In this document: in pieces, positions 41,234-58,970 of the stretch
How positions within the stretch are numbered: the stretch's first letter is position 1
How the letters are laid out: the number at the start of each line of letters is the position of its first letter
Sequence record: OQ873415.1
Length of the DNA stretch: 64,000 nt
DNA from: Escherichia phage PECP20
Direction: 5' to 3' (one strand)
Notes under the pieces: model-generated
The model's database searches: none
Seen by the model: only the letters and a program-made list of their open reading frames with translations
Told to the model about the DNA's origin: nothing
Made by a program: the position numbers and the translations under genes

Positions 41234-41431
41234 ATGTTTAAACTTCCATCGTTAATCAACGCTATTAAAGGCAATAAAAAGAAAACTGCTATCGCCGCAA
41301 TAGTTGTAGGTGGCATTATTTCATGGAACTTCGGGATTGCACCATTGTTAGTTGCCCATGGTATTATAGTTCCTTCTGTTCCATTGGATACTGTAGTTGA
41401 TTTGGCCTTTGCTATTATAGGGCTTGTTTAA
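41234..41431 (+). CDS. small membrane protein (65 aa) on opposite strand between genes 56 and 61
   Basis: Strong SD TAAGGAG 7 nt upstream of ATG; two hydrophobic segments; no minus-strand ORF of comparable size in this gap. Confidence 0.4.
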   Translation: MFKLPSLINAIKGNKKKTAIAAIVVGGIISWNFGIAPLLVAHGIIVPSVPLDTVVDLAFAIIGLV

Positions 41432-42450
41432 ATCTTCGAATAACGAGATAATCTCATTTTAGCATGCAACCCACTTGAAATATTCTGTTTCATATATTCT
41501 AAAATTTCTTGTGGTGTTGCATTTTCTTTCATTACCATATCATTCACATCCTTTGAACTCCATGGAGCTCGGTCCCAGAACATAACACGTTCGCCTGCAT
41601 CTACTAATCGCTTCATACGAGCTATAGTATCCGGATGCCTAGGTTCATTATCCATCACCCATACCCGACGTTCTTTAAATGGTACCACATCTAAATCTAT
41701 TGAACCGCCTGTAATAGCGATTGCATTGGGTATGAATAAACTATCAATAGGGCCTTCCATTACCCAGACGTCTCCTTCCTTAACACGTTCAACACCATAA
41801 ATTTTTGTTGCAGACTCAAACGCTTTAATAGTTATATATTTCTGAGGAGCATCTTTGCGAAGTGCACGTCCTTGAAATGACTCAGCCTTCCCGTCTTTAT
41901 TAAAAATAGGAATCACTAAACGCGGTTCTGGAATCTCTTTCTTATACGTGCCTGGTTGAATCTTGTTGACCAATTTAGGCCATTCTAATGTGAACCATAA
42001 TCTGTTCCACGATTCTTTAGGAATACACCGAGACTTAACATATTTCACAATAGGATGCTCTTCAGGCAACTTGTCCAGACGAGAACAAGACGGCAAAGAA
42101 TTTATAGTCTTTTTCTCCGGTTCTGGTTTATGTTCAGGAACCTTTTCAATCTTTGGTTCCATTCTAGCTTTTTCTTTACGAACTTCCATTAGATATTCAC
42201 GATAAAGCTCTTCGTCATACTCTTTTAAGTATCCGGAAATCGTATTATGATATTGACAGTTATAGCAATGCACATTACCTGGAGTACCGCCATAATACCA
42301 TCCGCGGGCTTTCATTGCATCTGTCTGAGAGTCGCCACAAACTGGACAACGAAACGTTAATTTAAATGTGCTTGAATTATTGATTTGTCTAAAACGAGGT
42401 AGGTGAGAAAACGCACGATAAGCAAATTCATTATCTATCCATTCAGCCAT
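41428..42450 (-). CDS. 61: DNA primase gp61
   Basis: 340 aa (T4 gp61 342 aa); N-terminal zinc ribbon CPVCGDS...CYNC and TOPRIM region. Confidence 0.9.
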   Translation of the reverse strand: MAEWIDNEFAYRAFSHLPRFRQINNSSTFKLTFRCPVCGDSQTDAMKARGWYYGGTPGNVHCYNCQYHNTISGYLKEYDEELYREYLMEVRKEKARMEPKIEKVPEHKPEPEKKTINSLPSCSRLDKLPEEHPIVKYVKSRCIPKESWNRLWFTLEWPKLVNKIQPGTYKKEIPEPRLVIPIFNKDGKAESFQGRALRKDAPQKYITIKAFESATKIYGVERVKEGDVWVMEGPIDSLFIPNAIAITGGSIDLDVVPFKERRVWVMDNEPRHPDTIARMKRLVDAGERVMFWDRAPWSSKDVNDMVMKENATPQEILEYMKQNISSGLHAKMRLSRYSKI

Positions 42451-42489: not shown

Positions 42490-42984
42490 TCACAACTTAT
42501 TGATATTTACTTTAATTCGCTTTCTTTTCTTGGAAGGAATTTGTTCTGGACCTTTATTTACGACTGCACCTGTAGTTGTTCCTGATGCAATAGCTTGAGG
42601 GCTGCCACCTGAATCACCGGCCACCATATCCTCAAATAAAGGGAGTTCTTTAAATATTTCTTTCTGCTGTTCTTCCGTAATGTTATAGCGTGAAGCTACA
42701 GCACTCCAGGCAGACATCATTGAGGCCATTCCATTAAGACCTGGAACAGTACTCATCATTCGCTTCATTGAACGAACTGAAGCGTGAAAAGGTGTATAAG
42801 CCGCTTTCTCTTCGGGAGTAGAAGGACGTTTAAGAACACTTCCACGTTCGTCGATTATTTTGGCTTCGTACGCTTTCCATTCGGTAAAAGGTTTTTGCAT
42901 TAGTCGAATAAACTTATATGCGTAAACAGAATCTATTGCAGTGTTAATAATACCCATAGGTACCTCCTGAGTATATTTAATCAA
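42490..42984 (-). CDS. hypothetical protein (61.1 position)
   Basis: 164-aa ORF. Confidence 0.45.
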   Translation of the reverse strand: MIKYTQEVPMGIINTAIDSVYAYKFIRLMQKPFTEWKAYEAKIIDERGSVLKRPSTPEEKAAYTPFHASVRSMKRMMSTVPGLNGMASMMSAWSAVASRYNITEEQQKEIFKELPLFEDMVAGDSGGSPQAIASGTTTGAVVNKGPEQIPSKKRKRIKVNINKL

Positions 42985-43175: not shown

Positions 43176-43835
43176 TTAACCTCGATTCATAAATGCATTA
43201 AATATTTGGTCATCAACAGAAATTTCTAATTCGGCTTCAATTGCTTCAGCCTTTTCTTCAGGTGGTAATTCGTATCCACACACTACAATTTTTTCATCGA
43301 TATCAAAATATACAGAAGCAATACGATTAATGTTACTTTCAGTTAAGTCTAAATCAACATCAACATCTTTTTGACCTACACTTAAAGGATAACTAATACG
43401 GGTTATTTTATTATCTTTAACAAAGAGTCCACCAACATACTCTGTACTACGTTTGAAGTTTACACGTTTCCGAATTGAAAGATATGATACATCTTTACCG
43501 TGAGCTCGGCTCATAGGACATAATGAATAGCTAGAATAAGAGATGTCAAATCCTACACCTTCAATATGAGCCAACGTGTCATGAGTAAACCAATTATAAT
43601 CATATGCCAAATCCATTAAATTATAATATGTGAAAGGCACTGGATTAACATCATATGTTGTACCTTTAAAATCAGCCCAGGCAACGATTTCGTTATCTTT
43701 AACAATTACAAAAATTACACCAATATGGTATCCGTTATTATTTTCATTCGGCGTTATATTATAACATTGTGCATTAGGAAATTTACCATATTTAAATGGT
43801 GCGTTTTTGTGCATGTAATAAATCATATTATTCAC
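43176..43835 (-). CDS. hypothetical protein (61.2 position)
   Basis: 219-aa ORF. Confidence 0.45.
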   Translation of the reverse strand: MNNMIYYMHKNAPFKYGKFPNAQCYNITPNENNNGYHIGVIFVIVKDNEIVAWADFKGTTYDVNPVPFTYYNLMDLAYDYNWFTHDTLAHIEGVGFDISYSSYSLCPMSRAHGKDVSYLSIRKRVNFKRSTEYVGGLFVKDNKITRISYPLSVGQKDVDVDLDLTESNINRIASVYFDIDEKIVVCGYELPPEEKAEAIEAELEISVDDQIFNAFMNRG

Positions 43836-44121
43836 CTGTGATTTCGGTTACGATATCTTTGTTATCGAAATTAGGGTCACAATACAAAACATAGTTGTAC
43901 TGCATGATACCGCCAGACTTAAGTTGTTCAACAACTTTATTAACCATATTAGGACGGTCTCGTTTAGTGATGTTCATGATATCAGAGAAGATTTGTTGTT
44001 CAACATCTTCTTGATTTGCAGTCATTGACCACTCACAGAGGTCTTTATCATAACCTGCTGTAACTGGAGCTGGTGCACATGATACTGCGAGTAAGATTGC
44101 TGCCAATGATAACTTTTTCAT
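43828..44121 (-). CDS. sp: Spackle periplasmic protein (superinfection exclusion; lysozyme inhibitor)
   Basis: 97 aa with signal peptide; AGYDKDLCEWSMTA ... KRDRP ... QLKSGG.MQYNYVLYCD.NF.NK.I matches T4 Sp as recalled. Confidence 0.75.
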   Translation of the reverse strand: MKKLSLAAILLAVSCAPAPVTAGYDKDLCEWSMTANQEDVEQQIFSDIMNITKRDRPNMVNKVVEQLKSGGIMQYNYVLYCDPNFDNKDIVTEITGE

Positions 44122-44150
44122 TTTAACTCCTTAGTTGATTTGATAGGACT

Positions 44151-44180
44151 ACTATACTATAGACCATCTATAATGTAAAC
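44151..44180 (-). promoter_or_regulatory. Early promoter upstream of sp
   Basis: Minus strand GTTTAC ... TATAGT with gataggactactata motif. Confidence 0.45.
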
Positions 44181-44184
44181 AAAT

Positions 44185-44433
44185 TTATTCTTTTTCGCGA
44201 ATAATAATTACTTGTTGAGGCTGCTGAGCAGATTTCTTTTCGGCAACGATAGACCAAATTAAAGTTCCAATCCAACCAATCATCGTCCAGTTAAAGAGTA
44301 AAGATACAAAGAAGATTGCTGTTGTGCTTTTTGTGCCACGAATAAGTGCGATTACCCAAGGCAACATGTAAATGATGATTGAACCAATACCTGCGATTAA
44401 AACTGCCACTGAACTAGCTACGAATAATTCCAT
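44185..44433 (-). CDS. small integral membrane protein (61.4 position)
   Basis: 82 aa, two predicted TM helices, Trp-rich. Confidence 0.45.
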   Translation of the reverse strand: MELFVASSVAVLIAGIGSIIIYMLPWVIALIRGTKSTTAIFFVSLLFNWTMIGWIGTLIWSIVAEKKSAQQPQQVIIIREKE

Positions 44434-44494
44434 GTTAATTTCCTCTTGATTTGTTATGTTTATAATATCTCGTTTTAACTTTGGCGTAAACCAA

Positions 44495-44863
44495 TTAATT
44501 AAATTTGTTTAAACGTTCAATACACTGGACGTAGTTATTCGCGATTTGTTTCTGGGAAGGCTCTTTGCCAGTTGTTTCAACATAGCGAATGAATGCGATT
44601 TCAGTAGCCTGTAAGCAATGTTCTTTAACGCGTTGTTCTTTTGACAATGCTACAGTATCAGAGTCACGATAACGTTGAGCATGGGCATCAGCTTGAATCA
44701 TTCGATTACCTACAGTAACCGGGTCTTCCACTTCGACTTTAGGTTGGTTGTACTGTTTAACATTCGGGTTATAAATCAATTGGCCAACATTATTAGGGAT
44801 AAAGCCATGAGCACCACATCCAGTTAATCCGAATACCATTGCTAAAGCTATTAATTTTTTCAT
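44495..44863 (-). CDS. putative lipoprotein
   Basis: 122 aa; signal peptide with lipobox LTGC. Confidence 0.5.
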   Translation of the reverse strand: MKKLIALAMVFGLTGCGAHGFIPNNVGQLIYNPNVKQYNQPKVEVEDPVTVGNRMIQADAHAQRYRDSDTVALSKEQRVKEHCLQATEIAFIRYVETTGKEPSQKQIANNYVQCIERLNKFN

Positions 44864-44923
44864 TTCAATTTCCTCTGTAGTTGATAGAAAGATAGTAACA
44901 CAGTATGTGGTGCTTGTAAACAG

Positions 44924-45136
44924 CTATTTTAAACTTTTGCGAAATTTGCGTTTTTCTTGACGAATCTGTCGTTTAGTCGGACGTACAGCAAATTTAACGA
45001 AGTCCACTTTGCCGTGTGGAAACTTTTCAGATGCTTCACAGTCCATCATTAGTTCCCATCCTTCTAGAATAAGAGCTTTCCATTGTGTAGTTGATGCAAA
45101 TTCGTATGTTGATGGTTTAAACACAGTTGAATACAT
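44924..45136 (-). CDS. hypothetical small protein
   Basis: ORF track 44924..45175 trimmed to internal ATG abutting dmd stop. Confidence 0.35.
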   Translation of the reverse strand: MYSTVFKPSTYEFASTTQWKALILEGWELMMDCEASEKFPHGKVDFVKFAVRPTKRQIRQEKRKFRKSLK

Positions 45137-45137
45137 A

Positions 45138-45329
45138 TTATCCTCTGAAATCAGCTTCAAAAACTTTCTCGTCATTAATAAATGCTTTAACTAATGCATT
45201 GTTCACTTCAGCAAGTTGTACCGTAACCCACTCGATTTCTTCGCGATCACCTGATAATATGATATCTTTAGTGAACATCTCGCCGCTTTTAAACCAGCCA
45301 ATAAAAGTAACTTTAGTTAATTTGCTCAT
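45138..45329 (-). CDS. dmd: putative Dmd-like antitoxin (inhibitor of RnlA/LsoA-type host toxins)
   Basis: 63 aa from ATG at 45329 (ATGA overlap); GWFK...MFTK...AEVN.ALVKAFI.D.KV.EAD.RG resembles T4 Dmd as recalled; correct map position upstream of gene 41. Confidence 0.45.
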   Translation of the reverse strand: MSKLTKVTFIGWFKSGEMFTKDIILSGDREEIEWVTVQLAEVNNALVKAFINDEKVFEADFRG

Positions 45330-45643
45330 ATTTCCTCGCAAAATGCCCATTCAGCATGATAAACTGTAGCACCTTTAGTATCATTCATTTGAACTACATC
45401 TACCGGAGAAATTACTCGATAGAGACGTGGTTCACCTCCATAAGAGCGTGCTGCTCGTCCTGCGTAAATCTTTGCTAAACCGATATCTTCAGTAAAGAAT
45501 ACACGATTCAAGTTTTTCTTACGTCCGGTTTCAGACAGAACTCCTGTTTCTTCAGGAGGACAAAGCATGTTTTCGATTTTAGCTGAACTACTTGAACCGT
45601 GATAAAAAATCTTAAATTCTGCTTTACAATCGATGGTTTTCAT
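45326..45643 (-). CDS. hypothetical protein
   Basis: 105-aa ORF with early promoter at 45668-45698. Confidence 0.4.
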   Translation of the reverse strand: MKTIDCKAEFKIFYHGSSSSAKIENMLCPPEETGVLSETGRKKNLNRVFFTEDIGLAKIYAGRAARSYGGEPRLYRVISPVDVVQMNDTKGATVYHAEWAFCEEI

Positions 45644-46073: not shown

Positions 46074-46136
46074 AATGTTTTCCTCTTGGTTGGTGTAAGT
46101 TCATCATATCATGCCTAGAGGAAGATGTAAACCCCG

Positions 46137-46158
46137 AAAGGAGACCGAAGTCTCCTTT
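46137..46158 (-). terminator. Terminator after gene 41 (bidirectional-looking: A-run/stem-loop/T-run)
   Basis: Plus text aaaggagac-cgaa-gtctccttttt. Confidence 0.6.
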
Positions 46159-46161
46159 TTA

Positions 46162-49768: not shown

Positions 49769-50668
49769 TTATTCCTCGATTACGACATCTTCGTATTTAG
49801 GTATATTATATGGTGAAGAAATTAAAGCATTAAAGTAGATGAACTCACCAAGACCTGGATGGAATACTTCTTCAGGATTTTCGAAATATTGAATCTTCGG
49901 GCGTCCTTTAAGAATTTGATAGTACTCAGTTTTAGTTGGTTTAAAAATTCGAATCAGCGCTTCTTCAGGATACTTATTTCTGTCGAAGCTATTATTTGGA
50001 TCGGTTATATAAAGCGGTTGACCTAATTGAATTGCACATTCAACCACTTGTTCAAAACGATAACATGGGTCACTAATTCGAAATGGATGAAAAATACCAT
50101 CTAGATGAATAGGAGCCAAATCACCTACAAGACGCTGCATGATGGAAGGACGTATAACTTTCTGAGTTACGATAATCTTATTACCATCTGCACCTGCGTT
50201 AACCAGCACTTCTTTTTGACGTTCATTCAACACGGTAGTTTGAAGTGAACGATTAACTGACAACATATCGGTTTTTAAGAATTCGTCAATATAAAAACGT
50301 TGTTTATTAGGGTCTGCAGTGATATTGAAATTGAATTCTACATCAAAAGCGCCGCCATAACCAGTGATATCTGTGATTAGAAAATCACAATCATAATAAT
50401 CAATTAATGAATCAACCACAAATTCATTTTCAGTCCAGAAATATTTACGAGTGTTATACGCGTTATCTTTATACCATAATGGAACAAACTTAAATTCTGG
50501 GAAAAGACGTTCGCATTCTTTAATATCAGATGCATTACGTGGATATGTAATCACATCACCCGGATTAGCACGGTGCAAATGAAGTTGGAAGTTGCCATCC
50601 TTAAGGATAGCATACTGTCCAGTTTCATAAGACCGCATACTCAAGATTGGTACGCGGAAAATAGCCAT
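49769..50668 (-). CDS. hypothetical protein occupying T4 beta-gt locus (possible transferase)
   Basis: 299 aa; no confident motif (a DCD tripeptide after a hydrophobic stretch could be a DxD); translationally coupled to flanking genes. Confidence 0.45.
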   Translation of the reverse strand: MAIFRVPILSMRSYETGQYAILKDGNFQLHLHRANPGDVITYPRNASDIKECERLFPEFKFVPLWYKDNAYNTRKYFWTENEFVVDSLIDYYDCDFLITDITGYGGAFDVEFNFNITADPNKQRFYIDEFLKTDMLSVNRSLQTTVLNERQKEVLVNAGADGNKIIVTQKVIRPSIMQRLVGDLAPIHLDGIFHPFRISDPCYRFEQVVECAIQLGQPLYITDPNNSFDRNKYPEEALIRIFKPTKTEYYQILKGRPKIQYFENPEEVFHPGLGEFIYFNALISSPYNIPKYEDVVIEE

Positions 50669-51384
50669 TAGTCAAGGAATCCTTTAACATAATCAAAATC
50701 ACGTTCAAACACATGGGCGCTTACCATGGTATGAGTATAATCACCAACTTCTACACCGCATTCGTTAGCGATATAATGAAGTAATTTTCCTTGGAGATAA
50801 AAATCCAACTGCATAACAACAGCACAGTTCTGAGAACGCATATGACAGTGGGTATAAAGCTTACCATCACGAATATAATAAGTTACTGAGTCAGTACATG
50901 GATATTCAAGTGTTTCGTCCGAATCAAGCAAAGCCTGATCAGAACTTTCTAGAATTTGGAACACAACTCTTCGAGAGTTAGGTTTTTCTTTAAGTTCTTT
51001 TAGAAGAGTTGGTAATTGGGCCGCAATGCGAGGGCCATAGAAAGTGTTGAAGTTCGCCGGCAAAACATCTGATTTTGGTTTAGAAATAAATTTAGCGACA
51101 TTAGGATATGCCTTAAACGCTTCTTCTGCGTTGGTACCACCAGAAATCATAAACTTCCAGAAGTCTTCGGCATATTCATAAGAGATGCGGTTAATACGTG
51201 GGTCGGTCATTTTGAATGATGATGGAGTGTCAACAACTACTGTCATAGACCCAATTTCATTACAACGTCCAATACGAGAATCAGTTACGAATTCGGGGTT
51301 TTCTAAAATTTCACGATTGACTGCTTTAAATGCGGTTTGAAAATCTGCGGCTTTGATATATTTCATTGTGTTATGTTTTCCCAT
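50668..51384 (-). CDS. 42: Thymidylate-synthase-fold pyrimidine hydroxymethylase, gp42-like (dCMP hydroxymethylase)
   Basis: 238 aa; motifs NSRR, PCTDS (catalytic Cys), MRSQN and C-terminal SAHVFERDF parallel T4 gp42 NPDSRRG / MCTNT / MRSND / SLHVYSRHF as recalled. Confidence 0.6.
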   Translation of the reverse strand: MGKHNTMKYIKAADFQTAFKAVNREILENPEFVTDSRIGRCNEIGSMTVVVDTPSSFKMTDPRINRISYEYAEDFWKFMISGGTNAEEAFKAYPNVAKFISKPKSDVLPANFNTFYGPRIAAQLPTLLKELKEKPNSRRVVFQILESSDQALLDSDETLEYPCTDSVTYYIRDGKLYTHCHMRSQNCAVVMQLDFYLQGKLLHYIANECGVEVGDYTHTMVSAHVFERDFDYVKGFLD

Positions 51385-51426: not shown

Positions 51427-51666
51427 TTATTTGAATTTCTTGACAATGTTGATATAACGTAAAGCTTCAGAATCTATACTTCCAAGAACACTATGAAGGA
51501 ATGCATCAGTGTAGTATTCCAATTGAACAGGTTCTTTAATCACTTTAGCCGCTTTGGTTTCAAACAGGCCCATAAGGGCCTTTTTAAGAATTTGTTCGTT
51601 AGTGTTCAGTTTCATAGTCAAAATCTCTTCGTTAAGTTTATAATTAAAACTTTTTCTAGAAATCAT
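51427..51666 (-). CDS. hypothetical small protein
   Basis: 79-aa ORF, coupled to upstream gene (ATGA-type overlap). Confidence 0.35.
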   Translation of the reverse strand: MISRKSFNYKLNEEILTMKLNTNEQILKKALMGLFETKAAKVIKEPVQLEYYTDAFLHSVLGSIDSEALRYINIVKKFK

Positions 51667-52823
51667 TCCGGGTACCTCAAAGCGTCATCAGAGTTAGTTA
51701 TATCAATAATAGATATGGAGTTTTCTGCTAACCCGTTTTTAGATAATTGACGTTTATAATACCTTTCACAATATGTACACGTTGACCCACAGATTTCATT
51801 AGCACAATCAAAATCTGGATGTCTGAACCACCTTTTTTCTAAAAAGCCATCTAACAAAGAGGTTTCAATATTTACTGTATGTGAAAACTCAGTCTCATTT
51901 TCAAGAGTGAAAATAGTCTCTAAAGGCTTCCACAGTTCTAACAAATTACCTTCAAACTTTTCAGAAGCGTATGCTTCAAGAACTTTCAAAATGTAGTCTG
52001 TGCTACCTGTACGTCCTGAAACTTTGAATTGAGTGATACCAATATCATTATAAAGTTTCAAATCTTGAGGACGAACAAAACGAGTTCTCAACCAGTTAAA
52101 TGGGTCTGTATCACGAGCTTTAATACAGTGCTGCATAGGATATCCATTTAAGGATTTAGCATCATCAGCGGTAACATCAGTACTATGGAAAATATAGCAA
52201 GAGTCACGATAACTACAATGTGTTGTATACCCTTTACCAGCATTAGAACAGAACTCATTTACAAGAACTTCAAATATTATATTGTTCTTATTGCAAAACT
52301 CTGCTGCACGCTTCAGGAAAGAAACTGAACGGTTCTTATGAATTCCGCAACAGACCTTTTTGATGTTATATTGGTCATGTAAGTATTTGATTTGAGTTAC
52401 CGCATCGACATGTAGAATTGTTGAAACTTCAATCTCAATATCTTTATTGACTTCACGAACAATTTCCATAACAACAGGGTTAGCGATAGTAATACGCCAT
52501 ACGCCTATTGACCAAAGATACTGAACATAATCCTGAATAGCTTTCTTCTTCCACTCAACTAGTTCTCTTTTTGAACCAGGATTTATCGTGTTGAGTGTAT
52601 AGTTAAAGCAAATACCTAATTCGTTACAACGTTTAACGTAGTCTTCTAACATCTTTTTGTCAACGTCAGGAAGCCTAAAATCAGGTCTGGCTGCTACAAA
52701 AGCCATTTCTCTTGTAGAGCCATATACTTCGTTTATCAAGCTATTAGGATAGGTTTTATTGAGCTCTACGATTTTATCAAGAAGAGCTAAATCAAAATTC
52801 GTTCCGATTTTAAAAGTATTCAT
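51663..52823 (-). CDS. Cys-rich putative metalloenzyme (possible Fe-S enzyme, U32-like?)
   Basis: 386 aa; many Cys including C-terminal CANEICGSTCTYC (C-x4-C-x3-C-x2-C) and HCSYRDSC resembling the U32 signature CxSYxxxC; assignment speculative. Confidence 0.45.
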   Translation of the reverse strand: MNTFKIGTNFDLALLDKIVELNKTYPNSLINEVYGSTREMAFVAARPDFRLPDVDKKMLEDYVKRCNELGICFNYTLNTINPGSKRELVEWKKKAIQDYVQYLWSIGVWRITIANPVVMEIVREVNKDIEIEVSTILHVDAVTQIKYLHDQYNIKKVCCGIHKNRSVSFLKRAAEFCNKNNIIFEVLVNEFCSNAGKGYTTHCSYRDSCYIFHSTDVTADDAKSLNGYPMQHCIKARDTDPFNWLRTRFVRPQDLKLYNDIGITQFKVSGRTGSTDYILKVLEAYASEKFEGNLLELWKPLETIFTLENETEFSHTVNIETSLLDGFLEKRWFRHPDFDCANEICGSTCTYCERYYKRQLSKNGLAENSISIIDITNSDDALRYPE

Positions 52824-52879
52824 TTTTTTGCATCTCGCGTTAATTGATGCGATGGTTTTTGCAGGTCTTACTTAAATTA

Positions 52880-53281
52880 TTATAGATTTGGTTTATATGA
52901 TTTAAATGTTTCGAATTCGCCTTTATTCATAAGAGCTTTGAATTCGTCAGGACGCATAGCTTTGTCGTCGATAATCCAATCATATACTGGTTTATGTGTT
53001 AGCAAATTATGGTACTTCAAACCAATGTTTTCCAAGTTCTGAATCAGACTTGGGAGAATGTCAATTGCTATACGACCAGGACCTACCGACTTCATACCAC
53101 GGGCAGTGTAAAGCGTTATGGTATGCCCTGCATCATACAGGGCATTAATGGCAGACACCATTTCGACGTCTGGTTTGAAGTTCACGTAATCACGATTGTT
53201 ATTCCACTCTGTTATACAATCATCGACATCAAAACAAAGATTAAGCATGTTTTCTACACGGTGCATTAGATTCGTTCCCAT
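52880..53281 (-). CDS. putative HAD-superfamily phosphatase-like protein
   Basis: 133 aa; N-terminal FDVDDC (DxDx motif I-like) followed by TLYTARG; weak. Confidence 0.4.
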   Translation of the reverse strand: MGTNLMHRVENMLNLCFDVDDCITEWNNNRDYVNFKPDVEMVSAINALYDAGHTITLYTARGMKSVGPGRIAIDILPSLIQNLENIGLKYHNLLTHKPVYDWIIDDKAMRPDEFKALMNKGEFETFKSYKPNL

Positions 53282-54951
53282 TGATGAGTGATATCGCCGC
53301 CGATTGGACGATAGGAAACACCAGTTTCTTTATCAGTTAGTACCCATTTACCAGGATTTTTTGTAATCAGAGTAGCCGTTACAGGTTCTGCTACGTCATA
53401 ACTAATAGAGCCGTCTTGAAGTACACGGCCCATGTTACGTAATTGCTTAGTCAGAAGTTCCATACCTTTATAATATGCGGCAACCGCTTTAAGTGGATTA
53501 TTCTTGAAATAACCACCTAATGCAATCCAGATAATTGCTACTGCCAAATGATGATACTCGTTAAACGAACTCATCTTTCCATATTTGTAAACTAATGGAT
53601 TGATGTTAATAGTCAAATTACAAGTTGTTTCATCAATAGTAAACTGACCCCAGGTCGGATTAGCATTGAATTCATCATAACCTGAAACAGCATAAAGCAC
53701 TTTAGCTTCATCATACAATTTTGGCCCGTAAATCTTGGTTTCACCAAAATATCCACGAGGGTCGATAAACTTGACTTCGCCGTTATCGGTAATCATAGTA
53801 TTACTGAAGTTCGGGTCACCATGAATAACAGAGTACTGTCCCTGAGAACGGTTATGATAACGAATAAGATGTTCTAAAGCTTGTTTCAACATTGGCTTCA
53901 GACGTCCAATCTTAGTGTAGTTCACATGTGTGATTTTACCAAATGAATCAATCAATGGCTGAATGCTTTCACAACGATCAATAACTTTCGTATAGAACTC
54001 TTTAGTGAAATCACGGCGAACAGTTTCAGGACTTACAAAATAAGTGTCCGTGCTGAATTTCAGTGCATCTAAAATTGCATCAACAATTTGTGGACGAGCA
54101 AGACTTGATTTGGATTTAATATATTCAAATGCCGGCTTACCTTTAATACGTTCCATTTCAAAATTATTTTCATTTACCGAAACTAACTGAGGAACTGAAT
54201 CTGATTTCACTTTCAAATACCATGAAATCTCATCTTTTTGAAGAGCTCGACCTTGTTCGGTTAACGCGAATTTAGTTACAGTTTCTTCGCCAATTTCAAC
54301 TGCATTAAAACTACGATTCAGTTCACGAACTTCATGAGCCTTTTCAAGTTTAGGCATATCACCTAAATCAATTAGATTCATAAGCTCTGATTTATTGAAT
54401 GCACTGCCGTAAAGGAATTCTACGAAATCACGACCTTTGCAGTATTCGTGAATTTCCTCATCAGTAGAACCCATGTAGAATTCCCAGTCTTTGAACTGAT
54501 AAATTCCTACAACATTACCACCTGTTGAACCTACGTTAGTGATATTTTCACCATCGAAATTATATCGACATTCATCACCCTTAACATAGATTGCGTTAAC
54601 ATTCCAAGACCATGAACCAAAGTCAGGAATAATATCACACCAGTTAACAATTACGTTATGGCCATCTAAATCTTTGTATAATTTAGCAAGAGCATAAGCA
54701 GAACCATACGCTTCATCAACTGTACGAATAGTCACATTGAACCCTTCTTGCTCGCAATAAGCTCGAACAGTTTCAGCAAATTTTGAATGAACTACTACAA
54801 TAATTTCATCTGCGCCAAGGTCAGAATAAATTGTATACAAATTGCTCAGAATAGTGTCTTGTTTATAGTTAACAAGCACCTTAGGAATATGGTGAGTAAT
54901 TGGATATAAACGAGTTGCTAATCCAGCACCAAGAATAACAGCTTTTTTCAT
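53266..54951 (-). CDS. Bifunctional sugar-1-phosphate nucleotidyltransferase (N-term) / APH-like anomeric sugar kinase (C-term)
   Basis: 561 aa; N-terminal MKKAVILGAGLATRLYPIT (G-x-G-T-R-L nucleotidyltransferase motif); C-terminal VIHGDPNFSNTMITDNGEVKFIDPRGYFG (HxDxxxxN catalytic loop plus IDxR of choline-kinase/APH fold). Confidence 0.6.
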   Translation of the reverse strand: MKKAVILGAGLATRLYPITHHIPKVLVNYKQDTILSNLYTIYSDLGADEIIVVVHSKFAETVRAYCEQEGFNVTIRTVDEAYGSAYALAKLYKDLDGHNVIVNWCDIIPDFGSWSWNVNAIYVKGDECRYNFDGENITNVGSTGGNVVGIYQFKDWEFYMGSTDEEIHEYCKGRDFVEFLYGSAFNKSELMNLIDLGDMPKLEKAHEVRELNRSFNAVEIGEETVTKFALTEQGRALQKDEISWYLKVKSDSVPQLVSVNENNFEMERIKGKPAFEYIKSKSSLARPQIVDAILDALKFSTDTYFVSPETVRRDFTKEFYTKVIDRCESIQPLIDSFGKITHVNYTKIGRLKPMLKQALEHLIRYHNRSQGQYSVIHGDPNFSNTMITDNGEVKFIDPRGYFGETKIYGPKLYDEAKVLYAVSGYDEFNANPTWGQFTIDETTCNLTININPLVYKYGKMSSFNEYHHLAVAIIWIALGGYFKNNPLKAVAAYYKGMELLTKQLRNMGRVLQDGSISYDVAEPVTATLITKNPGKWVLTDKETGVSYRPIGGDITHQWERI

Positions 54952-54992
54952 GTTGAAGTCCTCATTGGTAAGTAGGTGTATTGTACACTATT

Positions 54993-55136
54993 CTAGTTAA
55001 AGCATTCATACTTTGCCTGTAGACCAATCATAATCCATCCAATTACAAGTGTTGGAATCATTACTGGAGCCGTTAAGCCCCAGTAGATAGTCATGGCAAG
55101 CATCAATAGTAAAAGTCCTATTGTTATTGCTTTCAT
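54993..55136 (-). CDS. small hydrophobic protein (47 aa)
   Basis: Hand-translated: MKAITIGLLLLMLAMTIYWGLTAPVMIPTLVIGWIMIGLQAKYECFN; ATG overlaps stop of SIS gene; possible Imm-like membrane peptide. Confidence 0.3.
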   Translation of the reverse strand: MKAITIGLLLLMLAMTIYWGLTAPVMIPTLVIGWIMIGLQAKYECFN

Positions 55137-55768
55137 TGTTCGCCTCGTAACATGGCACCTAGTGCACCACCAGGGTGGAACTTAAGGAAGTCATTAGAGG
55201 TAAATCCACGTTCAGACGAAAGGTTGATAGCAAACGTATCGATAAGCGCTAACAACAATGTAGTGGACATGGTCGGAGCCAGAGAATTCTCATCAACCTC
55301 TACCGCGATGCCTGTACAGAACGTATAATCAAAAAGAGCTTCGTATTCTTGCGGAATGTCAGGGTTACAATGTAACAGAATCTGTTTAACCTGAGGACGA
55401 ATCATACGAAGATGTTTAGCAACACCTATCATTTCTTCAGTCTTACCAGAACGACTGATGTGAACTAATACATCATTAGGTGCAATAAATCCTGCGTCGC
55501 CATGAGAATAATGCCCGGTGTTCAAATACATGCTAGGAATACCTAGTGAAGCAAAAGTCTCGGAAGCTTTAGTTGCGATATTAGCGTTCTTACCAACACC
55601 TGTAATAATTACTCGGCTTTCATAATTACTCAGTCCAGGGCGACGAAGAGTTTCAAGAATAGCATTATATCGGGCAGAGTTTTGACTAATTACTTTAGCC
55701 ATAGTGGCAAGAGATGAAGCTTGTTTTACGATTGCGTCAATAGCGATAGTGATTGGTGTAGTTTTCAT
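55133..55768 (-). CDS. SIS-domain sugar-phosphate isomerase (arabinose-5-phosphate isomerase KdsD/GutQ-like, no CBS domains)
   Basis: 211 aa; ITGVGKNANIA...HGDAGFIAPNDVLVHISRSGKTEE...APTMSTTLLLALIDTF...FLKFHPGGALG parallels the KdsD SIS domain motifs as recalled. Confidence 0.65.
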   Translation of the reverse strand: MKTTPITIAIDAIVKQASSLATMAKVISQNSARYNAILETLRRPGLSNYESRVIITGVGKNANIATKASETFASLGIPSMYLNTGHYSHGDAGFIAPNDVLVHISRSGKTEEMIGVAKHLRMIRPQVKQILLHCNPDIPQEYEALFDYTFCTGIAVEVDENSLAPTMSTTLLLALIDTFAINLSSERGFTSNDFLKFHPGGALGAMLRGEQ

Positions 55769-55808: not shown

Positions 55809-58520
55809 TCAAAAATCGAACATATCGAACAGAGATGCTTTCTTCTCGTAATCGAGTTTCGCTGCTGATGTGAATCCTTCAAGTGGTTTAATAAATGTCT
55901 TCTCAAGGAGAACAGTGTAGTCCATCCAATGAAGTACGTCGTCTTTAATTAAATCTGTGATTTCAGTACCAGAAGGCCATGCGATACATTTATCACCGAA
56001 CGGGTTTCCATCACGTAAAGGCAGAACGTATACCTTTTCGCCTTCTACAACTTGTGGAGCATCAATATTACCTTTGATAGCTCTGTTATATGTCAGAATT
56101 CCACGAATATGGAACGGGCATTTAGGACCAGGGAATCCACCAACGTCATATTTAGCAATGTTATTCGCAGAAGATACTGACGCGATGCTAATATAATTCA
56201 ATTGACGGAATTCTTTTTCAAACTCTTTAAAATATTCTTGTAATGATTCTTCACCTTCTTGAAGCATACGACGAATACATTCTTTAAGAGCTTTCTGTAC
56301 TGCTTTAGGGGTCGAAGATTTCTGTGTTTCGAGACCCATGATTTTGAGTTTAGGCTCAGCGTATCTGGTTCCTTCCATATCCCACACGTTTAATGCATAA
56401 CGTTTCTTACCAGTCCAGAATCCACCAATACCTTTAGAACCGAGTGGAGGACCAGCAATAGCTTCTCGGTCCATGAACATCAAATGTTGCTTATTATTCA
56501 TGTATTCACACATTTCACGGAAACCTCTATCAATAGCCGGTTCCATACGTTCACGAGCGAACTTATCTAAGAAGTCTACCCAATGGTTGGTATCACGGAA
56601 TTTAGATTCACCAACCTTATCAATAATTTTATCTGCAGATACGTAAATAGAGTCTGTATCACCATAAAGAACGAAAGCTTCACCTTCTGTACCACAAACT
56701 TCGTTCAGATATTCATTAACTTTACGTTCAATCCACTGTAAAGCCATTTGACCAAATGTTGTGATTGCAGTTGCATTACGCAAATCGTAATAACGGAACC
56801 AAACGTTACCAAGTGCACCATAAAGCGAGTTGATGAGCAATTTACGGTTAATTTGTGCAGTCATACCTGCAACTTCAGTACGTTGAGCTCTAAACAACAT
56901 TTCATTAAGAGATTTAGCAGACAACTTTTTAATCTTTTCTTTAATCTCATCGCTGAAGTCGAAACGATAATCAACATCTAATGGTTCGTCAACAGAAAGA
57001 TTAGGATTATGCAACGCCTCTTTAATTATTTCACCATTACGTTGAGCCGCAAGCATGTAACCTTTATGTTCTTTACGTTGATTAAAGACCTTAGTGATTT
57101 CAGTTGGAACTACACCATCACGGTCTTTATAATACATCATGCCATTAGGAGAACAACTGTACACATCTGAAGGACGTTCAGCGATTGCGTTAATATAATC
57201 ATGCAGTGGAGCTACTTTAAACGTTCCTGCTATTGTTTCCGGGCTAATATTCACTTGGCGAATAATACTTGGATACAGGGATGTAAGGTCGAAACTCATT
57301 ACATATTTGTATCGATTTGGAATAGGTTCCTTAACAAAAGCGCCAGGATAAGGTTGAACCGGGTGAGAACGACCTTGTGGAATCACCTTGTTCTGCTCTT
57401 TAAGGCTATTAAAAATAATAGCATCCCATGTTTTAATTGGGCTAAACACAGATTGAATCTGTATCTTAGCATAATAACCCATGTCCAAACTCAAGTTGAT
57501 GAACTGACGCTTAGCATCAATTTGCAATACACGATACACGTCGATAATGTTATAAGAAATATATCGTTGGTGATTGCTTTCACGAAGCTTAGAAATAGGG
57601 CCGTCATATTTCAGTTTACCAACGTTCAATTCAAATTCTGAAATGTAATCCAGAGAATACGACGGTTGATTGGTAAAAGAGAATTTTTTGTAAAGGTCAA
57701 TGTAATCAAGAACAGAGATACCGAACAATGTAATGATTTCACGAGAACCATACATGTTTTCGATAACTTTAACACGAGTTTTACGATGTGGTGATAAACG
57801 TTTTGCTGTGGATTCACCAAAAATATTCTTGATTCTGTTATACACATATGGAATATCAAATGACTCAACGTTCCATCCAGTCAAAATGACAGGAGTTTTC
57901 TGTTGCCAGAAGTTGAGATATTCCATCAACAATTCTTTTTCGTTATCGAACGGCATATAAATGATTTTATCGATAATTTCGGATGGAACTTCATCACCAC
58001 CTTGTTCTTGAAGCTTAGCAGCGATTTCAATAGACCATTCTTCTACATTACCATATGGAGAATTCAATAGATCAAATACGTAGAACCTGTCGTCAATTGA
58101 GTCATAATGAGTGATAGCATCAATCGGATGTTTTGCTTGTGACGGCTCAGGGAACCCATCCGGAGATGTTACTTCGATGTCGAAGTTAGCCACACGAATT
58201 TTTGTATGGTCGTATTTGATTTCATAGTTATAAGTGTCAGACAAATACGCCAATTTGAAATCGTCCATGCCAAGTGCTTCAAGTCCGATATCTTCCATGC
58301 GTTTAATCCATTGGGAGGCATCACGCATATTAGCGAACAACTTACGAGTACACGGCTTACCGTAGATATCGAAATATTTCGTAGCCTGACTTTCTGGACA
58401 ATGTGCAAACAACGATGGCTTATACTCTACTTCACGAGTACGTTCACGGCCATTAGAATCGATGTAACGTTCAAAAATTGAATCACCAATCTGTTCAACC
58501 GTTAAGTAAAATTCTTTCAT
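55809..58520 (-). CDS. 43: DNA polymerase gp43 (family B, with 3'-5' exonuclease)
   Basis: 903 aa; N-terminus MKEFYLTVEQIGDSIFERYIDSNGRERTREVEYKPSLFAHCPESQATKYFDIYGKPCTRKLF and exo motif NFDIEV match RB69 gp43 as recalled; pol motifs SLYPSII, YGDTDS. Confidence 0.95.
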   Translation of the reverse strand: MKEFYLTVEQIGDSIFERYIDSNGRERTREVEYKPSLFAHCPESQATKYFDIYGKPCTRKLFANMRDASQWIKRMEDIGLEALGMDDFKLAYLSDTYNYEIKYDHTKIRVANFDIEVTSPDGFPEPSQAKHPIDAITHYDSIDDRFYVFDLLNSPYGNVEEWSIEIAAKLQEQGGDEVPSEIIDKIIYMPFDNEKELLMEYLNFWQQKTPVILTGWNVESFDIPYVYNRIKNIFGESTAKRLSPHRKTRVKVIENMYGSREIITLFGISVLDYIDLYKKFSFTNQPSYSLDYISEFELNVGKLKYDGPISKLRESNHQRYISYNIIDVYRVLQIDAKRQFINLSLDMGYYAKIQIQSVFSPIKTWDAIIFNSLKEQNKVIPQGRSHPVQPYPGAFVKEPIPNRYKYVMSFDLTSLYPSIIRQVNISPETIAGTFKVAPLHDYINAIAERPSDVYSCSPNGMMYYKDRDGVVPTEITKVFNQRKEHKGYMLAAQRNGEIIKEALHNPNLSVDEPLDVDYRFDFSDEIKEKIKKLSAKSLNEMLFRAQRTEVAGMTAQINRKLLINSLYGALGNVWFRYYDLRNATAITTFGQMALQWIERKVNEYLNEVCGTEGEAFVLYGDTDSIYVSADKIIDKVGESKFRDTNHWVDFLDKFARERMEPAIDRGFREMCEYMNNKQHLMFMDREAIAGPPLGSKGIGGFWTGKKRYALNVWDMEGTRYAEPKLKIMGLETQKSSTPKAVQKALKECIRRMLQEGEESLQEYFKEFEKEFRQLNYISIASVSSANNIAKYDVGGFPGPKCPFHIRGILTYNRAIKGNIDAPQVVEGEKVYVLPLRDGNPFGDKCIAWPSGTEITDLIKDDVLHWMDYTVLLEKTFIKPLEGFTSAAKLDYEKKASLFDMFDF

Positions 58521-58568
58521 TTAATTTCCTTTAGACGAGTTATTGTCTTTTGTTTGTTGATGAACTTA

Positions 58569-58588
58569 TTATACTCCAAATGGGACCG
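58569..58588 (-). terminator. Stem-loop after regA, upstream of gene 43
   Basis: Minus strand AAUGGGAC-UUCG-GUCCCAUU followed by UGGAGUAUAAU. Confidence 0.5.
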
Positions 58589-58601
58589 AAGTCCCATTGC
58601 T

Positions 58602-58970
58602 TTAATTACCAATTGTATATTTTGCTTTCAAAGTCCAGTCATCTTTCTGTTTAAAAGAGATAACACGGAAGTTATTAGTCAGGCTAAATAGATCTTCACG
58701 AGCAGAGTCTTCAATAACAATTAACCCCCAGTCTTCAAGCAACTGGGCAATCGAATCACGTCGCTGATAGTCTTCACCGTCGATATCAACTTGTCGTCCG
58801 TCCATACGCAGCATTTCTTTAAAGTGGACGATGTAGTATTTACCTTGCTTTTGGAGGATATGACAGGACTGATAAAGAACTTTATCCTTGTTATTAGCGA
58901 TGCCCATACGGGTCAGAGTCTCTTTGACTTTCAGAAAATCTTCGGGGTTCTTCAATTTAATTTCGATCAT
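58602..58970 (-). CDS. regA: Translational repressor RegA
   Basis: ATG at 58970 gives 122 aa beginning MIEIKLKNPEDFLKVKETLTRMGIANNKDKVLYQSCHIL, matching T4 RegA. Confidence 0.85.
   Translation of the reverse strand: MIEIKLKNPEDFLKVKETLTRMGIANNKDKVLYQSCHILQKQGKYYIVHFKEMLRMDGRQVDIDGEDYQRRDSIAQLLEDWGLIVIEDSAREDLFSLTNNFRVISFKQKDDWTLKAKYTIGN

Follow-up and report, generated by a model that had tools for sequence, protein, structure and literature searches.

A sp–imm–imm.1 locus in an RB69-like Mosigvirus: three probable early genes for envelope proteins, with a predicted lipoprotein encoded beside imm

The window analysed here is a 64,000-nucleotide stretch of DNA from Escherichia phage PECP20 (record OQ873415.1). 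In DNA database comparisons it was 99.5% identical to phage CAU_ECP01 and 98.1% identical to RB69, and 144 database records reached at least 80% coverage of the query DNA. Judged by sequence, the phage is an RB69-like Mosigvirus of the T4 type. Three open reading frames on the minus strand between 43,828 and 44,863 encode proteins of 97, 82, and 122 amino acids (aa), with ends exactly as given in the original prediction (Table 1). The names at the matching locus of the RB69 GenBank record (AY303349) are sp, imm, and imm.1, and the trio is an ordinary one that is already annotated there. In RB69 (AAP75937-AAP75939) the order and spacing of the three genes are identical; the proteins are 99% identical, with one amino-acid change in each, and the DNA is 98% identical. 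The original prediction had missed this annotation. It had also placed Spackle first in the cluster, but in the direction of transcription Spackle comes last (imm.1, imm, sp).

Table 1. Genes and promoter-like sites at the locus, with positions in the window.
Feature	Position	Strand	Description
61.2 / adfA (anti-DarT factor A)	43176..43826	-	PF23813, E 7.6e-119
sp (gene 61.3, spackle)	43828..44121	-	97-aa precursor; PF25676, phrog_1586
T4-early-type promoter-like site, 5' of sp	44151..44180	-	GTTTACA-17-TATAGT
imm	44185..44433	-	82 aa, two hydrophobic segments; PF14373, phrog_1039
T4-early-type promoter-like site, 5' of imm	44462..44491	-	GTTTACG-17-TATTAT
imm.1	44495..44863	-	122-aa predicted lipoprotein, lipobox LTGC; PF17578/DUF5481, phrog_1754
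T4-early-type promoter-like site, 5' of imm.1	44892..44921	-	GTTTACA-17-TACTAT, TG before -10
61.4 homologue (DUF7279)	44924..45175	-	PF23945, E 4.7e-20; RB69 annotation; upstream neighbour of imm.1

All three genes begin with ATG and are preceded by a strong Shine-Dalgarno sequence (AAGGAG or GAGGAA), and the ATG of adfA follows the sp stop codon by 1 nt. Sites of the pattern GTTTAC-N18-TAnnnT numbered 11 in the window, where 1.08 were expected; all are on the minus strand, which is the transcribed strand, and three of them were found directly upstream of sp, imm, and imm.1, one each. From its upstream site, imm.1 is judged to be probably expressed early. In T4, imm starts 7 nt past imm.1, whereas in the window the two are 61 nt apart and the spacer carries a promoter-like site of its own. 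No terminators were found between the genes of the trio, and RNA structure in the three intergenic spacers was no better than in shuffled sequence. Composition was uniform, with no anomaly at the trio. Both imm and imm.1 are single-copy in the window, and no second copy or remnant of either was found at its polymerase-42 locus, where the interval contains sugar-nucleotide genes (SIS, NTP-transferase, and U32). A weak match at 58,543-58,632 was rejected as a remnant of imm or imm.1, being out of frame within another gene. For ORF105 there was no PDB sequence match, and a single-sequence AF2 model, at a pLDDT of 41.8, was too poor to be of use.

The product of sp matched PF25676 over residues 1-96 of 96 (E 1.1e-42; 145 bits, with the cut-off at 27) and phrog_1586 (E 2.9e-42), as well as PDB entries 6x6o and 7cn6, both 'Protein spackle'. 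It is 99% identical to RB69 Sp and 66% identical to T4 Spackle (gp61.3; PDB 6x6o, 6xc0, 6xc1, 7cn6, 7cn7), which is likewise 97 aa long. Using our own script, its N-terminus was found to combine a KK n-region with a hydrophobic core spanning residues 4-24 and a VTA/G site aligned with AMA/G of T4 Sp, where cleavage has been shown by N-terminal sequencing (PMC7650644). The Spackle with a signal peptide that had been proposed is thus borne out by both the family match and the N-terminal features. Removal of the predicted 22-aa signal peptide would leave a mature periplasmic protein of 75 aa with Cys29 and Cys81. All of the named gp5-contact residues (S32, M33, T34, A35, Q37, and N76; PMC7677548) are retained along with C29 and C81; across 11 homologues C29, S32-A35, N76, and C81 are invariant. 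Ser14-Cys15 within the signal peptide is invariant as well. The cleavage position, the Cys29-Cys81 pair, and the named contact residues are held in common with T4 Spackle, as is the tight pairing with downstream 61.2/adfA; upstream, sp is directly preceded by 61.4 in T4 and by imm in the window. T4 Sp has been shown by experiment to inhibit gp5 in a 1:1 ratio (PMC7650644; PMC7677548). Because of the 66% identity and the kept contact residues, this mechanism can be extended to the window, and Sp would be a homologue of T4 Spackle that acts as a periplasmic inhibitor of the gp5 tail lysozyme.

The 82-aa protein, which had been described as a two-TM protein and left unnamed, was found to be Imm. 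Its residues 21-62 aligned to the whole of PF14373, profile positions 1-42 of 42, with E 1.5e-15 and 57.2 bits, above the cut-off of 27.9, and it also matched phrog_1039, 'immunity to superinfection' (E 1e-30). Identity to T4 Imm is 65% over the full length (83 columns), and from this full-length similarity and its single copy it is taken as the T4 Imm orthologue. Kyte-Doolittle windows of 19 residues scoring at least 1.6 gave two hydrophobic segments, 1-34 (peak 2.51) and 40-59 (peak 1.64), which predict an inner-membrane protein with two TM segments. T4 Imm also has two such segments and shares the motifs LPW(V/F)IAL(I/M)RG and NW(T/S)(M/I)IGW and the C-terminal VIIIREKE tail. The site of the gene differs, lying between genes 43 and 42 in T4 and beside sp in the window. 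In T4, imm blocks the DNA of later-adsorbing T-even phages from reaching the cytoplasm, and cloned T4 imm alone was reportedly found by Lu and Henning in 1989 to exclude T4. We know of no molecular mechanism for T4 Imm, decades after its discovery. Since the two proteins are 65% identical, the same phenotype is expected of the window protein, and superinfection exclusion would be its function by homology. The guess of superinfection exclusion in the original prediction accordingly finds support for Sp (PF25676) and for Imm (PF14373, phrog_1039). Siphovirus homologues of Imm occur alone; Imm does not need Imm.1, and Imm.1 is no obligate partner.

The 122-aa protein matched PF17578/DUF5481 (E 3.7e-9; 37.4 bits, with the cut-off at 27) and phrog_1754 (E 3.6e-29). 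It shares 32% identity with T4 Imm.1 (E 3e-19), whose lipobox is LAGC. Lipoboxes were called by the rule [LVI][ASTVI][GAS]C within the first 40 residues, after a positive n-region and a hydrophobic core. Our script identified the N-terminal MKK, the core LIALAMVFG, and the LTGC lipobox that had been noticed originally, with Cys16 as the lipid cysteine and Gly at position +2. This lipobox is conserved: representatives of nine out of nine Tevenvirinae genera have LSGC, LTGC, or LAGC, none of them with Asp at +2, and the lipoproteins of the nine genera all match phrog_1754 or are tblastn relatives. In Lol sorting, Asp at +2 keeps a lipoprotein in the inner membrane. Since position +2 is Gly and Asp is absent there from the family members examined, sorting of Imm.1 to the outer membrane is predicted. 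The signal-peptide, lipobox, and TM calls for the trio combine simple rules with conservation and T4 experiments, and the targeting features are not considered chance occurrences because they are conserved in homologues. The lipid anchor is not universal in the Imm.1 family, as the 45%-identical metagenomic homologue P0002 has Phe in place of the lipid Cys.

Beyond the lipobox, the window protein shares YNPxxKxY, AQxYRxS, and the two C-terminal cysteines with T4 Imm.1, and both are encoded immediately upstream of imm. T4 Imm.1 differs in having GxVVxxSxVGK after the lipid Cys and an extra cysteine pair, both of which are missing from the window protein. C83 and C114 are invariant. An AF2 model built from a 7-sequence alignment had a mean pLDDT of 62.7 and was confident only at residues 75-120. 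With moderate confidence it suggests a mature protein of 106 aa made up of a disordered tether, about 30 residues long, and a three-helix bundle at the C-terminus that contains C83 and C114. Foldseek searches with this model gave nothing better than E 1.9 against the PDB and only the protein's own family against BFVD. Because model confidence is limited and Foldseek gave no outside matches, the fold is uninformative as to function. Sequence searches were similarly confined: a word-index search returned 3 proteins only, an exhaustive profile search of 1.84 billion representatives returned 9 matches that were either T4-like phage relatives or spurious coiled-coil hits, and nothing significant was found in NCBIfam or PADLOC. 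With hhalign, the short (T4/RB69) and long (Dhaka/Gapriver/Jiaoda) lipoproteins were aligned over the first 30 columns only; it is the phrog_1754 profile, common to both, that argues for full-length kinship. Membership of the lysozyme inhibitors (MliC/PliC-like) was rejected for Imm.1, with no sequence or fold support, and so was membership of the Llp/Cor family, on the same grounds. A literature search for imm.1 and DUF5481 found no dedicated study and no experiment on Imm.1 in any phage, nor any experiment on the trio in the present phage.

Gene order was compared across nine Tevenvirinae genera, and in seven of them (Tequatro-, Mosig-, Jiaoda-, Dhaka-, Gapriver-, Moon-, and Gelderlandvirus) an Imm.1-family gene adjoins imm. 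It lies immediately upstream of imm in the window, in T4, and in Jiaoda-, Moon-, and Gelderlandvirus. Across the nine genera, the normal place of the lipoprotein gene is directly after the DNA polymerase gene. In the other two, Kanagawa- and Winklervirus, the lipoprotein gene adjoins the polymerase gene and imm is absent from the 4.3-4.5 kb stretch around it; an arabinose-5-phosphate isomerase gene is also found at this polymerase locus. Imm.1 was present in 154 records at the Mosigvirus level and 502 at the T4 level, and Imm in 153 and 502, counts which are consistent with co-occurrence. Among the genera examined, the imm.1-imm pair is beside sp only in Mosigvirus; a distance of 5-8 kb separates sp from imm or the lipoprotein gene in T4, Klebsiella, and Dhakavirus phages. 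The sp–imm–imm.1 trio is a lineage-specific juxtaposition. The ancestral order is probably gene 43 (polymerase), imm.1, imm, and gene 42; in Mosigvirus the imm.1-imm pair stands between 61.4 and sp, and sugar-nucleotide genes occupy the polymerase-42 interval.

The reading that best fits these data, with a probability of about 0.85, is that the locus is the sp-imm-imm.1 locus of an RB69-like Mosigvirus, consisting of three early genes whose products go to three sites in the cell envelope. Each gene would be transcribed from its own sigma-70 early promoter of the GTTTAC type and translated from a strong ribosome-binding site. Sp would be secreted, lose its 22-residue signal peptide, bind the tail-spike protein gp5 at its lysozyme domain, and inhibit that domain allosterically, as shown for T4; the wall of the infected cell would thereby be shielded from later-adsorbing phages and from free gp5. 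Imm would form a two-helix hairpin in the inner membrane and stop the DNA of later-adsorbing T-even phages from reaching the cytoplasm. Imm.1 would be a prolipoprotein lipidated at Cys16, its most likely destination being the inner leaflet of the outer membrane, from which a small disulfide-bonded helical domain would be shown to the periplasm on a flexible tether. The argument for an exclusion role of Imm.1 is its conserved adjacency to imm, and we suggest tentatively, at somewhat below even odds, that Imm.1 plays an accessory part in the exclusion or envelope-protection function that Imm serves. A bolder version, which we consider doubtful, is that Imm.1 is a third, outer-membrane-anchored component of that function and forms with Imm and Sp a layered trans-envelope barrier to the incoming tail tube and DNA. 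In such a barrier Imm.1 would cooperate with periplasmic Sp and with inner-membrane Imm, in the latter case perhaps by way of the IIIxExK tail that is peculiar to T4-type Imm proteins, and the fast divergence of Imm.1 would then help to set mutual exclusion among relatives such as RB69 and T4.

The functional meaning of the three-gene adjacency is contested by an explanation to which we give slightly better than even odds. According to this explanation, the imm.1-imm pair was displaced while the polymerase-42 interval was remodelled with sugar-nucleotide (DNA-modification) genes, and it landed amid other independently promoted early cassettes. Since every gene has its own promoter and a spacer of similar layout (about 60 nt), operon logic is not needed for the trio. 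The restriction of the sp neighbourhood to Mosigvirus, the SIS, NTP-transferase, and U32 genes in the window, the uniform composition, and the loss of adjacent imm in the two genera with arabinose-5-phosphate isomerase all fit displacement. On the other hand, imm.1 and imm moved jointly, with their order kept, and came to lie next to sp, the one further exclusion gene that the genome has, which is suggestive but amounts to a single evolutionary event. Displacement is in any case compatible with the sp-imm-imm.1 reading and contests only selected clustering. A different challenge concerns Sp, and perhaps its neighbours, whose main job might be self-protection and lysis timing, not exclusion of competitors: Sp would neutralise the phage's own unassembled gp5 leaked into the periplasm and stabilise lysis inhibition. 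The titre of T4 did not fall when Sp was over-expressed, over-expression of gp5 lysed cells, and neutralisation of free gp5 was favoured by the authors (PMC7650644). Moreover, sp is the rapid-lysis gene rIV, which affects lysis inhibition, and this inhibition is shortened in sp and imm mutants (PMC6832632); the 'lysis timing' of the original prediction is apt for this reason. We regard self-protection as the less probable main role, though a substantial possibility, and it does not exclude a role of Sp in exclusion.

Imm.1 could instead act alone, as a receptor- or porin-directed outer-membrane lipoprotein like T5 Llp or Cor, its adjacency to imm being historical only. By binding a phage receptor on its periplasmic face, Imm.1 would keep later phages from adsorbing or from being triggered. 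T5 Llp (PMC9586334) and Cor-type lipoproteins are also small, phage-encoded, and linked to exclusion of later phages, a likeness of analogy only. The predicted outer-membrane sorting, small periplasmic domain, and probably early expression of Imm.1 would suit such a role, as would its occurrence without adjacent imm and its fast divergence between T4 and RB69 (32% identity against 65% for Imm and Sp), which is expected with a variable target. However, Llp and Cor block the receptor, whereas cells infected with T4 continue to adsorb secondary phages, which are excluded at a later step (PMC6832632). There is also a soluble variant that lacks the lipid Cys, and no similarity of sequence or fold to any known protein was detected; we consider this role of Imm.1 improbable. 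Far less credible still is a lysis role with Imm.1 as the outer-membrane spanin subunit and Imm as its inner-membrane partner, which would account for a lipoprotein gene adjoining a membrane-protein gene. The promoters are early-type and not late, Imm with its two TM segments lacks a periplasmic coiled-coil domain, and Imm.1, with its predicted helices, long tether, and mature length of 106 aa, does not resemble a short proline-rich peptide. Neither sequence nor fold gave any support for a spanin. The demonstrated phenotype of T4 imm is also a different one, and T4-type spanins are pseT.3 and pseT.2, encoded elsewhere. Imm and Imm.1 were rejected as a two-component spanin composed of a late type-II coiled-coil protein and a short proline-rich lipoprotein.

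In itself the trio leaves little at stake, being a textbook T-even exclusion gene pair with a named neighbour, annotated in RB69. What is added here is the promoter-like site of each gene, the lipobox in nine genera, the adjacency to imm in seven of nine, and the adjacency to sp in Mosigvirus only. The lead that emerges is the phrog_1754/DUF5481 lipoprotein, encoded beside imm in seven of nine genera and moved together with it in Mosigvirus. If Imm.1 takes part in exclusion, it would offer a new handle on the block to DNA entry imposed by T4-type phages and would bear on cross-exclusion among phages in therapeutic cocktails. In the RB69 record Imm.1 is labelled a 'predicted membrane protein'; its sequence carries a lipoprotein signal.

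The original prediction had placed three small envelope-type genes at 43828-44863, and these were confirmed, with the ends of all three minus-strand ORFs matching exactly. Along the direction of transcription, imm.1 comes first, followed by imm and then sp. A strong Shine-Dalgarno sequence precedes the ATG start of each ORF, and short plus-strand ORFs overlapping the trio lack support. The genes around the trio, identified from ORF calls and Pfam, mark a T4-type replication region. By megablast, 290 phage records match 43176-45350, and the identities to Escherichia phage CAU_ECP01 (best match, 99.5%) and RB69 (98.1%) assign the window to an RB69-like Mosigvirus (Straboviridae, Tevenvirinae). 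In RB69 (AY303349), the genes annotated over this stretch are 61.2, sp, imm, imm.1, 61.4, and dmd, and Sp, Imm, and Imm.1 of the window are each 99% identical to their RB69 counterparts. The trio is therefore a known feature already named in public annotation, of low surprise, with interest confined to what the Imm.1 lipoproteins do.

Features of the trio, its surroundings, and the polymerase-42 interval
Feature	Position	Strand	Remarks
gp61 primase	41428-42450		
61.1	42490-42984	minus	164-aa ORF
61.2 (AdfA)	43176-43826	minus	PF23813, E 8e-119
sp	43828-44121	minus	97-aa protein, ORF call
imm	44185-44433	minus	82-aa protein, ORF call
imm.1	44495-44863	minus	122-aa protein, ORF call
61.4 homologue			DUF7279, near trio
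dmd	45138-45350	minus	PF17587
RB69ORF040c homologue	45326-45643	minus	105 aa, phrog_2110
Spacer between gene 41 and 124-aa ORF	46074-46161	minus	GGAGACTTCGGTCTCC hairpin
gp41 helicase	46162-47604		
Gene 42 homologue	50668-51384		
Polymerase-42 interval	51427-55768	minus	between genes 42 and 43
Gene 43	55809-58520		

The sp stop codon lies 1 nt from the start codon of adfA/61.2, and this pair is equally tight in T4. The trio lies among counter-defence genes, namely dmd and 61.2, the latter now listed in Pfam as AdfA (anti-DarT factor A), which makes the 41-61 interval a cluster of small early competition and counter-defence genes. At 61.1, the window has a single ORF where RB69 annotates two, 61.1 (279 nt) and ORF032c (192 nt), and CAU_ECP01 one 468-nt gene; either the strains differ by a fusion or frameshift or only the annotation differs. 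The conserved 105-aa phage ORF of unknown function, with dmd on one side and an unknown 124-aa gene on the other, carries an FYHGSS motif and matches the Pfam family of rifampin ADP-ribosyltransferases, Arr-ms, weakly and below threshold (E 0.062). A PDB sequence search with this ORF gave no match, and an AF2 model from its sequence alone was too poor to use (pLDDT 41.8).

Sp matches PF25676 (T4_Spackle) over its full length (E 1.1e-42) as well as phrog_1586 and the solved Spackle structures (E 1e-39), and is 66% identical to T4 Sp. Targeting signals of the trio were assigned by simple rules in a script, followed by a conservation check. These rules gave Sp an N-terminal MKK, a hydrophobic core, and a VTA|G site aligned with AMA|G of T4 Sp, which, once released from the periplasm, lacks its first 22 residues by N-terminal sequencing (PMC7650644). 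The disulfide pair C29/C81 is retained, as are the residues reported to contact the gp5 lysozyme in the complex (S32-A35, Q37, and N76) (PMC7677548); apart from Q37, these positions are invariant in 11 homologues. T4 Sp is periplasmic, binds the gp5 lysozyme domain 1:1, and inhibits it allosterically while leaving the endolysin T4L uninhibited (PMC7677548; PMC7650644). By orthology, the same mechanism would apply to Sp of the window. The role of Sp is disputed: over-expression did not lower T4 titre, and the authors of that work favour a main role in neutralising free gp5 (PMC7650644). Within the signal peptide (residues 1-15, 44077-44121), Ser14-Cys15 is shared by 11 homologues, the most distant of them 46% identical, and always sits in a lipobox-like motif (LASC, AVSC, VASC, or VSSC), with the remaining hydrophobic core variable. 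This Cys is conserved although the soluble over-expressed T4 protein is cut after residue 22 (PMC7650644); a lipidated sub-population of Sp is one possible explanation.

The 82-aa protein matches PF14373 (Imm_superinfect, E 1.5e-15) and phrog_1039 ('immunity to superinfection', E 1e-30) and is 65% identical to T4 Imm. What had been predicted as a two-TM protein is thus Imm itself, with hydrophobic stretches at 1-34 and 40-59 by the script rules. The RGTKST loop between them would face the cytoplasm under the positive-inside rule. According to Lu and Henning, Imm is reportedly a plasma-membrane protein, and imm cloned alone is said to exclude T4 and to halt DNA ejection about half way. Since Sp and Imm are homologues of the T4 proteins, the hedged reading of superinfection exclusion gains support for these two genes. 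In a small sample (the window and T4-type loci L003, L005, L006, L007, L011, and L012), Imm ends in a (Q)xIIIxExK tail outside the PF14373 core (VIIIREKE in the window; residues 74-82, 44185-44211). The two solo siphovirus homologues in this small sample, from Salmonella phage INT55 (L013) and Klebsiella phage 37P2 (L014), have neither the tail nor a neighbouring lipoprotein. Both lie on the opposite strand within a tail-gene cluster, beside the tape-measure and tail-tube genes, and look like typical morons.

T4 has the order 43 (polymerase)-imm.1-imm-42, with 7 nt between imm.1 and imm; its sp lies at a distance of 6 kb, with 61.4 and 61.2 as neighbours. Downstream of the polymerase gene, Jiaodavirus has the Imm.1-family lipoprotein, imm, and 42; Moonvirus has the same order, with the 42 homologue annotated as thymidylate synthase; and in Gelderlandvirus lipoprotein and imm precede a hypothetical protein and glucosyltransferases. 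In Dhakavirus imm precedes the lipoprotein, and in Gaprivervirus a 47-aa membrane peptide separates imm from the lipoprotein. In Tequatro-, Jiaoda-, and Dhakavirus, match coordinates place sp 5-8 kb from imm or the lipoprotein. Where T4 has imm.1-imm, the window instead encodes a SIS-domain protein (211 aa), a 561-aa nucleotidyltransferase-containing protein, a 133-aa protein, a U32-family protein (386 aa), and a 79-aa ORF, with no second imm or imm.1 in the interval. These genes probably make up the RB69 pathway for arabinosyl-hmC DNA modification. In Kanagawavirus and Winklervirus the lipoprotein is followed at this place by arabinose-5-phosphate isomerase, and no imm was found within the 4.3-4.5 kb around it. 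In the simplest history, imm.1 and imm would have left the polymerase locus together in the Mosigvirus lineage and settled at the 61.4/sp junction. Such a move, being a single event, supports selected clustering with sp only weakly.

Imm.1 matches PF17578 (DUF5481) above the cut-off (E 3.7e-9) and phrog_1754 (E 3.6e-29), and is 32% identical to T4 Imm.1 (E 3e-19). By the script rules, its N-terminus has MKK, a hydrophobic core, and the predicted LTGC lipobox (LAGC in T4) with Cys16 and Gly at +2. Every genus lipoprotein compared has LSGC, LTGC, or LAGC, none with Asp at +2, and a full-length match to phrog_1754 was obtained for each one tested (E 1e-15 to 1e-52); when short and long forms are compared directly, profile to profile, no more than the first 30 columns align. 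With nine matches in an exhaustive HMM search of 1.84 billion representatives, the family is tiny and restricted to T4-like phages. In the AF2 model, the first 44 residues, including an invariant YNPxxKxY motif, lack order and precede a three-helix domain (48-67, 75-98, and 104-120) that is confident at 75-120 only, with invariant C83 in the second helix and invariant C114 in the third. Searches of PDB and BFVD found no similar structure outside the family itself. A 45%-identical metagenomic homologue has Phe at the position of the lipid Cys, together with a signal-peptidase-I site (AHA|S), suggesting that it is the periplasmic domain, and not the anchor, that is essential.

Imm.1 is predicted to be a lipoprotein that Lol sorts to the outer membrane and that acts in the periplasm. 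A literature search on the role of the family found nothing. We tentatively favour an accessory of exclusion or envelope protection, at a probability of roughly 35-40%. Record counts for Imm.1 (154 at Mosigvirus level and 502 at T4 level) and Imm (153 and 502) are nearly equal, as would be expected if the two genes co-occur; another 132 and 148 records come from the longer lipoprotein forms. An obligate partnership is opposed by the solo, moron-like Imm genes beside the siphovirus tape-measure gene and by the lipoprotein-only arrangements of two genera. An independent, receptor-directed role of the Llp/Cor kind seems improbable, and whatever these two readings leave falls to an unrelated envelope function.

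Each of the three trio spacers (~60 nt) contains GTTTAC, 18 nt, TAnnnT, and then the ribosome-binding site. Across the 64-kb window, this T4-early-type pattern has 11 occurrences, all on the minus strand, where shuffles give an expectation of 1.08. Having its own pattern, each of sp, imm, and imm.1 is probably an independent early transcription unit, which fits proteins needed within minutes of infection. No terminator-like sites were found between the genes, no significant RNA structure in the spacers, and no compositional break. The spacer between gene 41 and the 124-aa ORF differs from those of the trio, which have the promoter-like site without a hairpin, in that its hairpin is followed directly by a GTTTAC early-promoter-like site. 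Promoter-plus-stem-loop cassettes have been proposed as mediators of gene shuffling in T4-type phages, and this arrangement resembles them.
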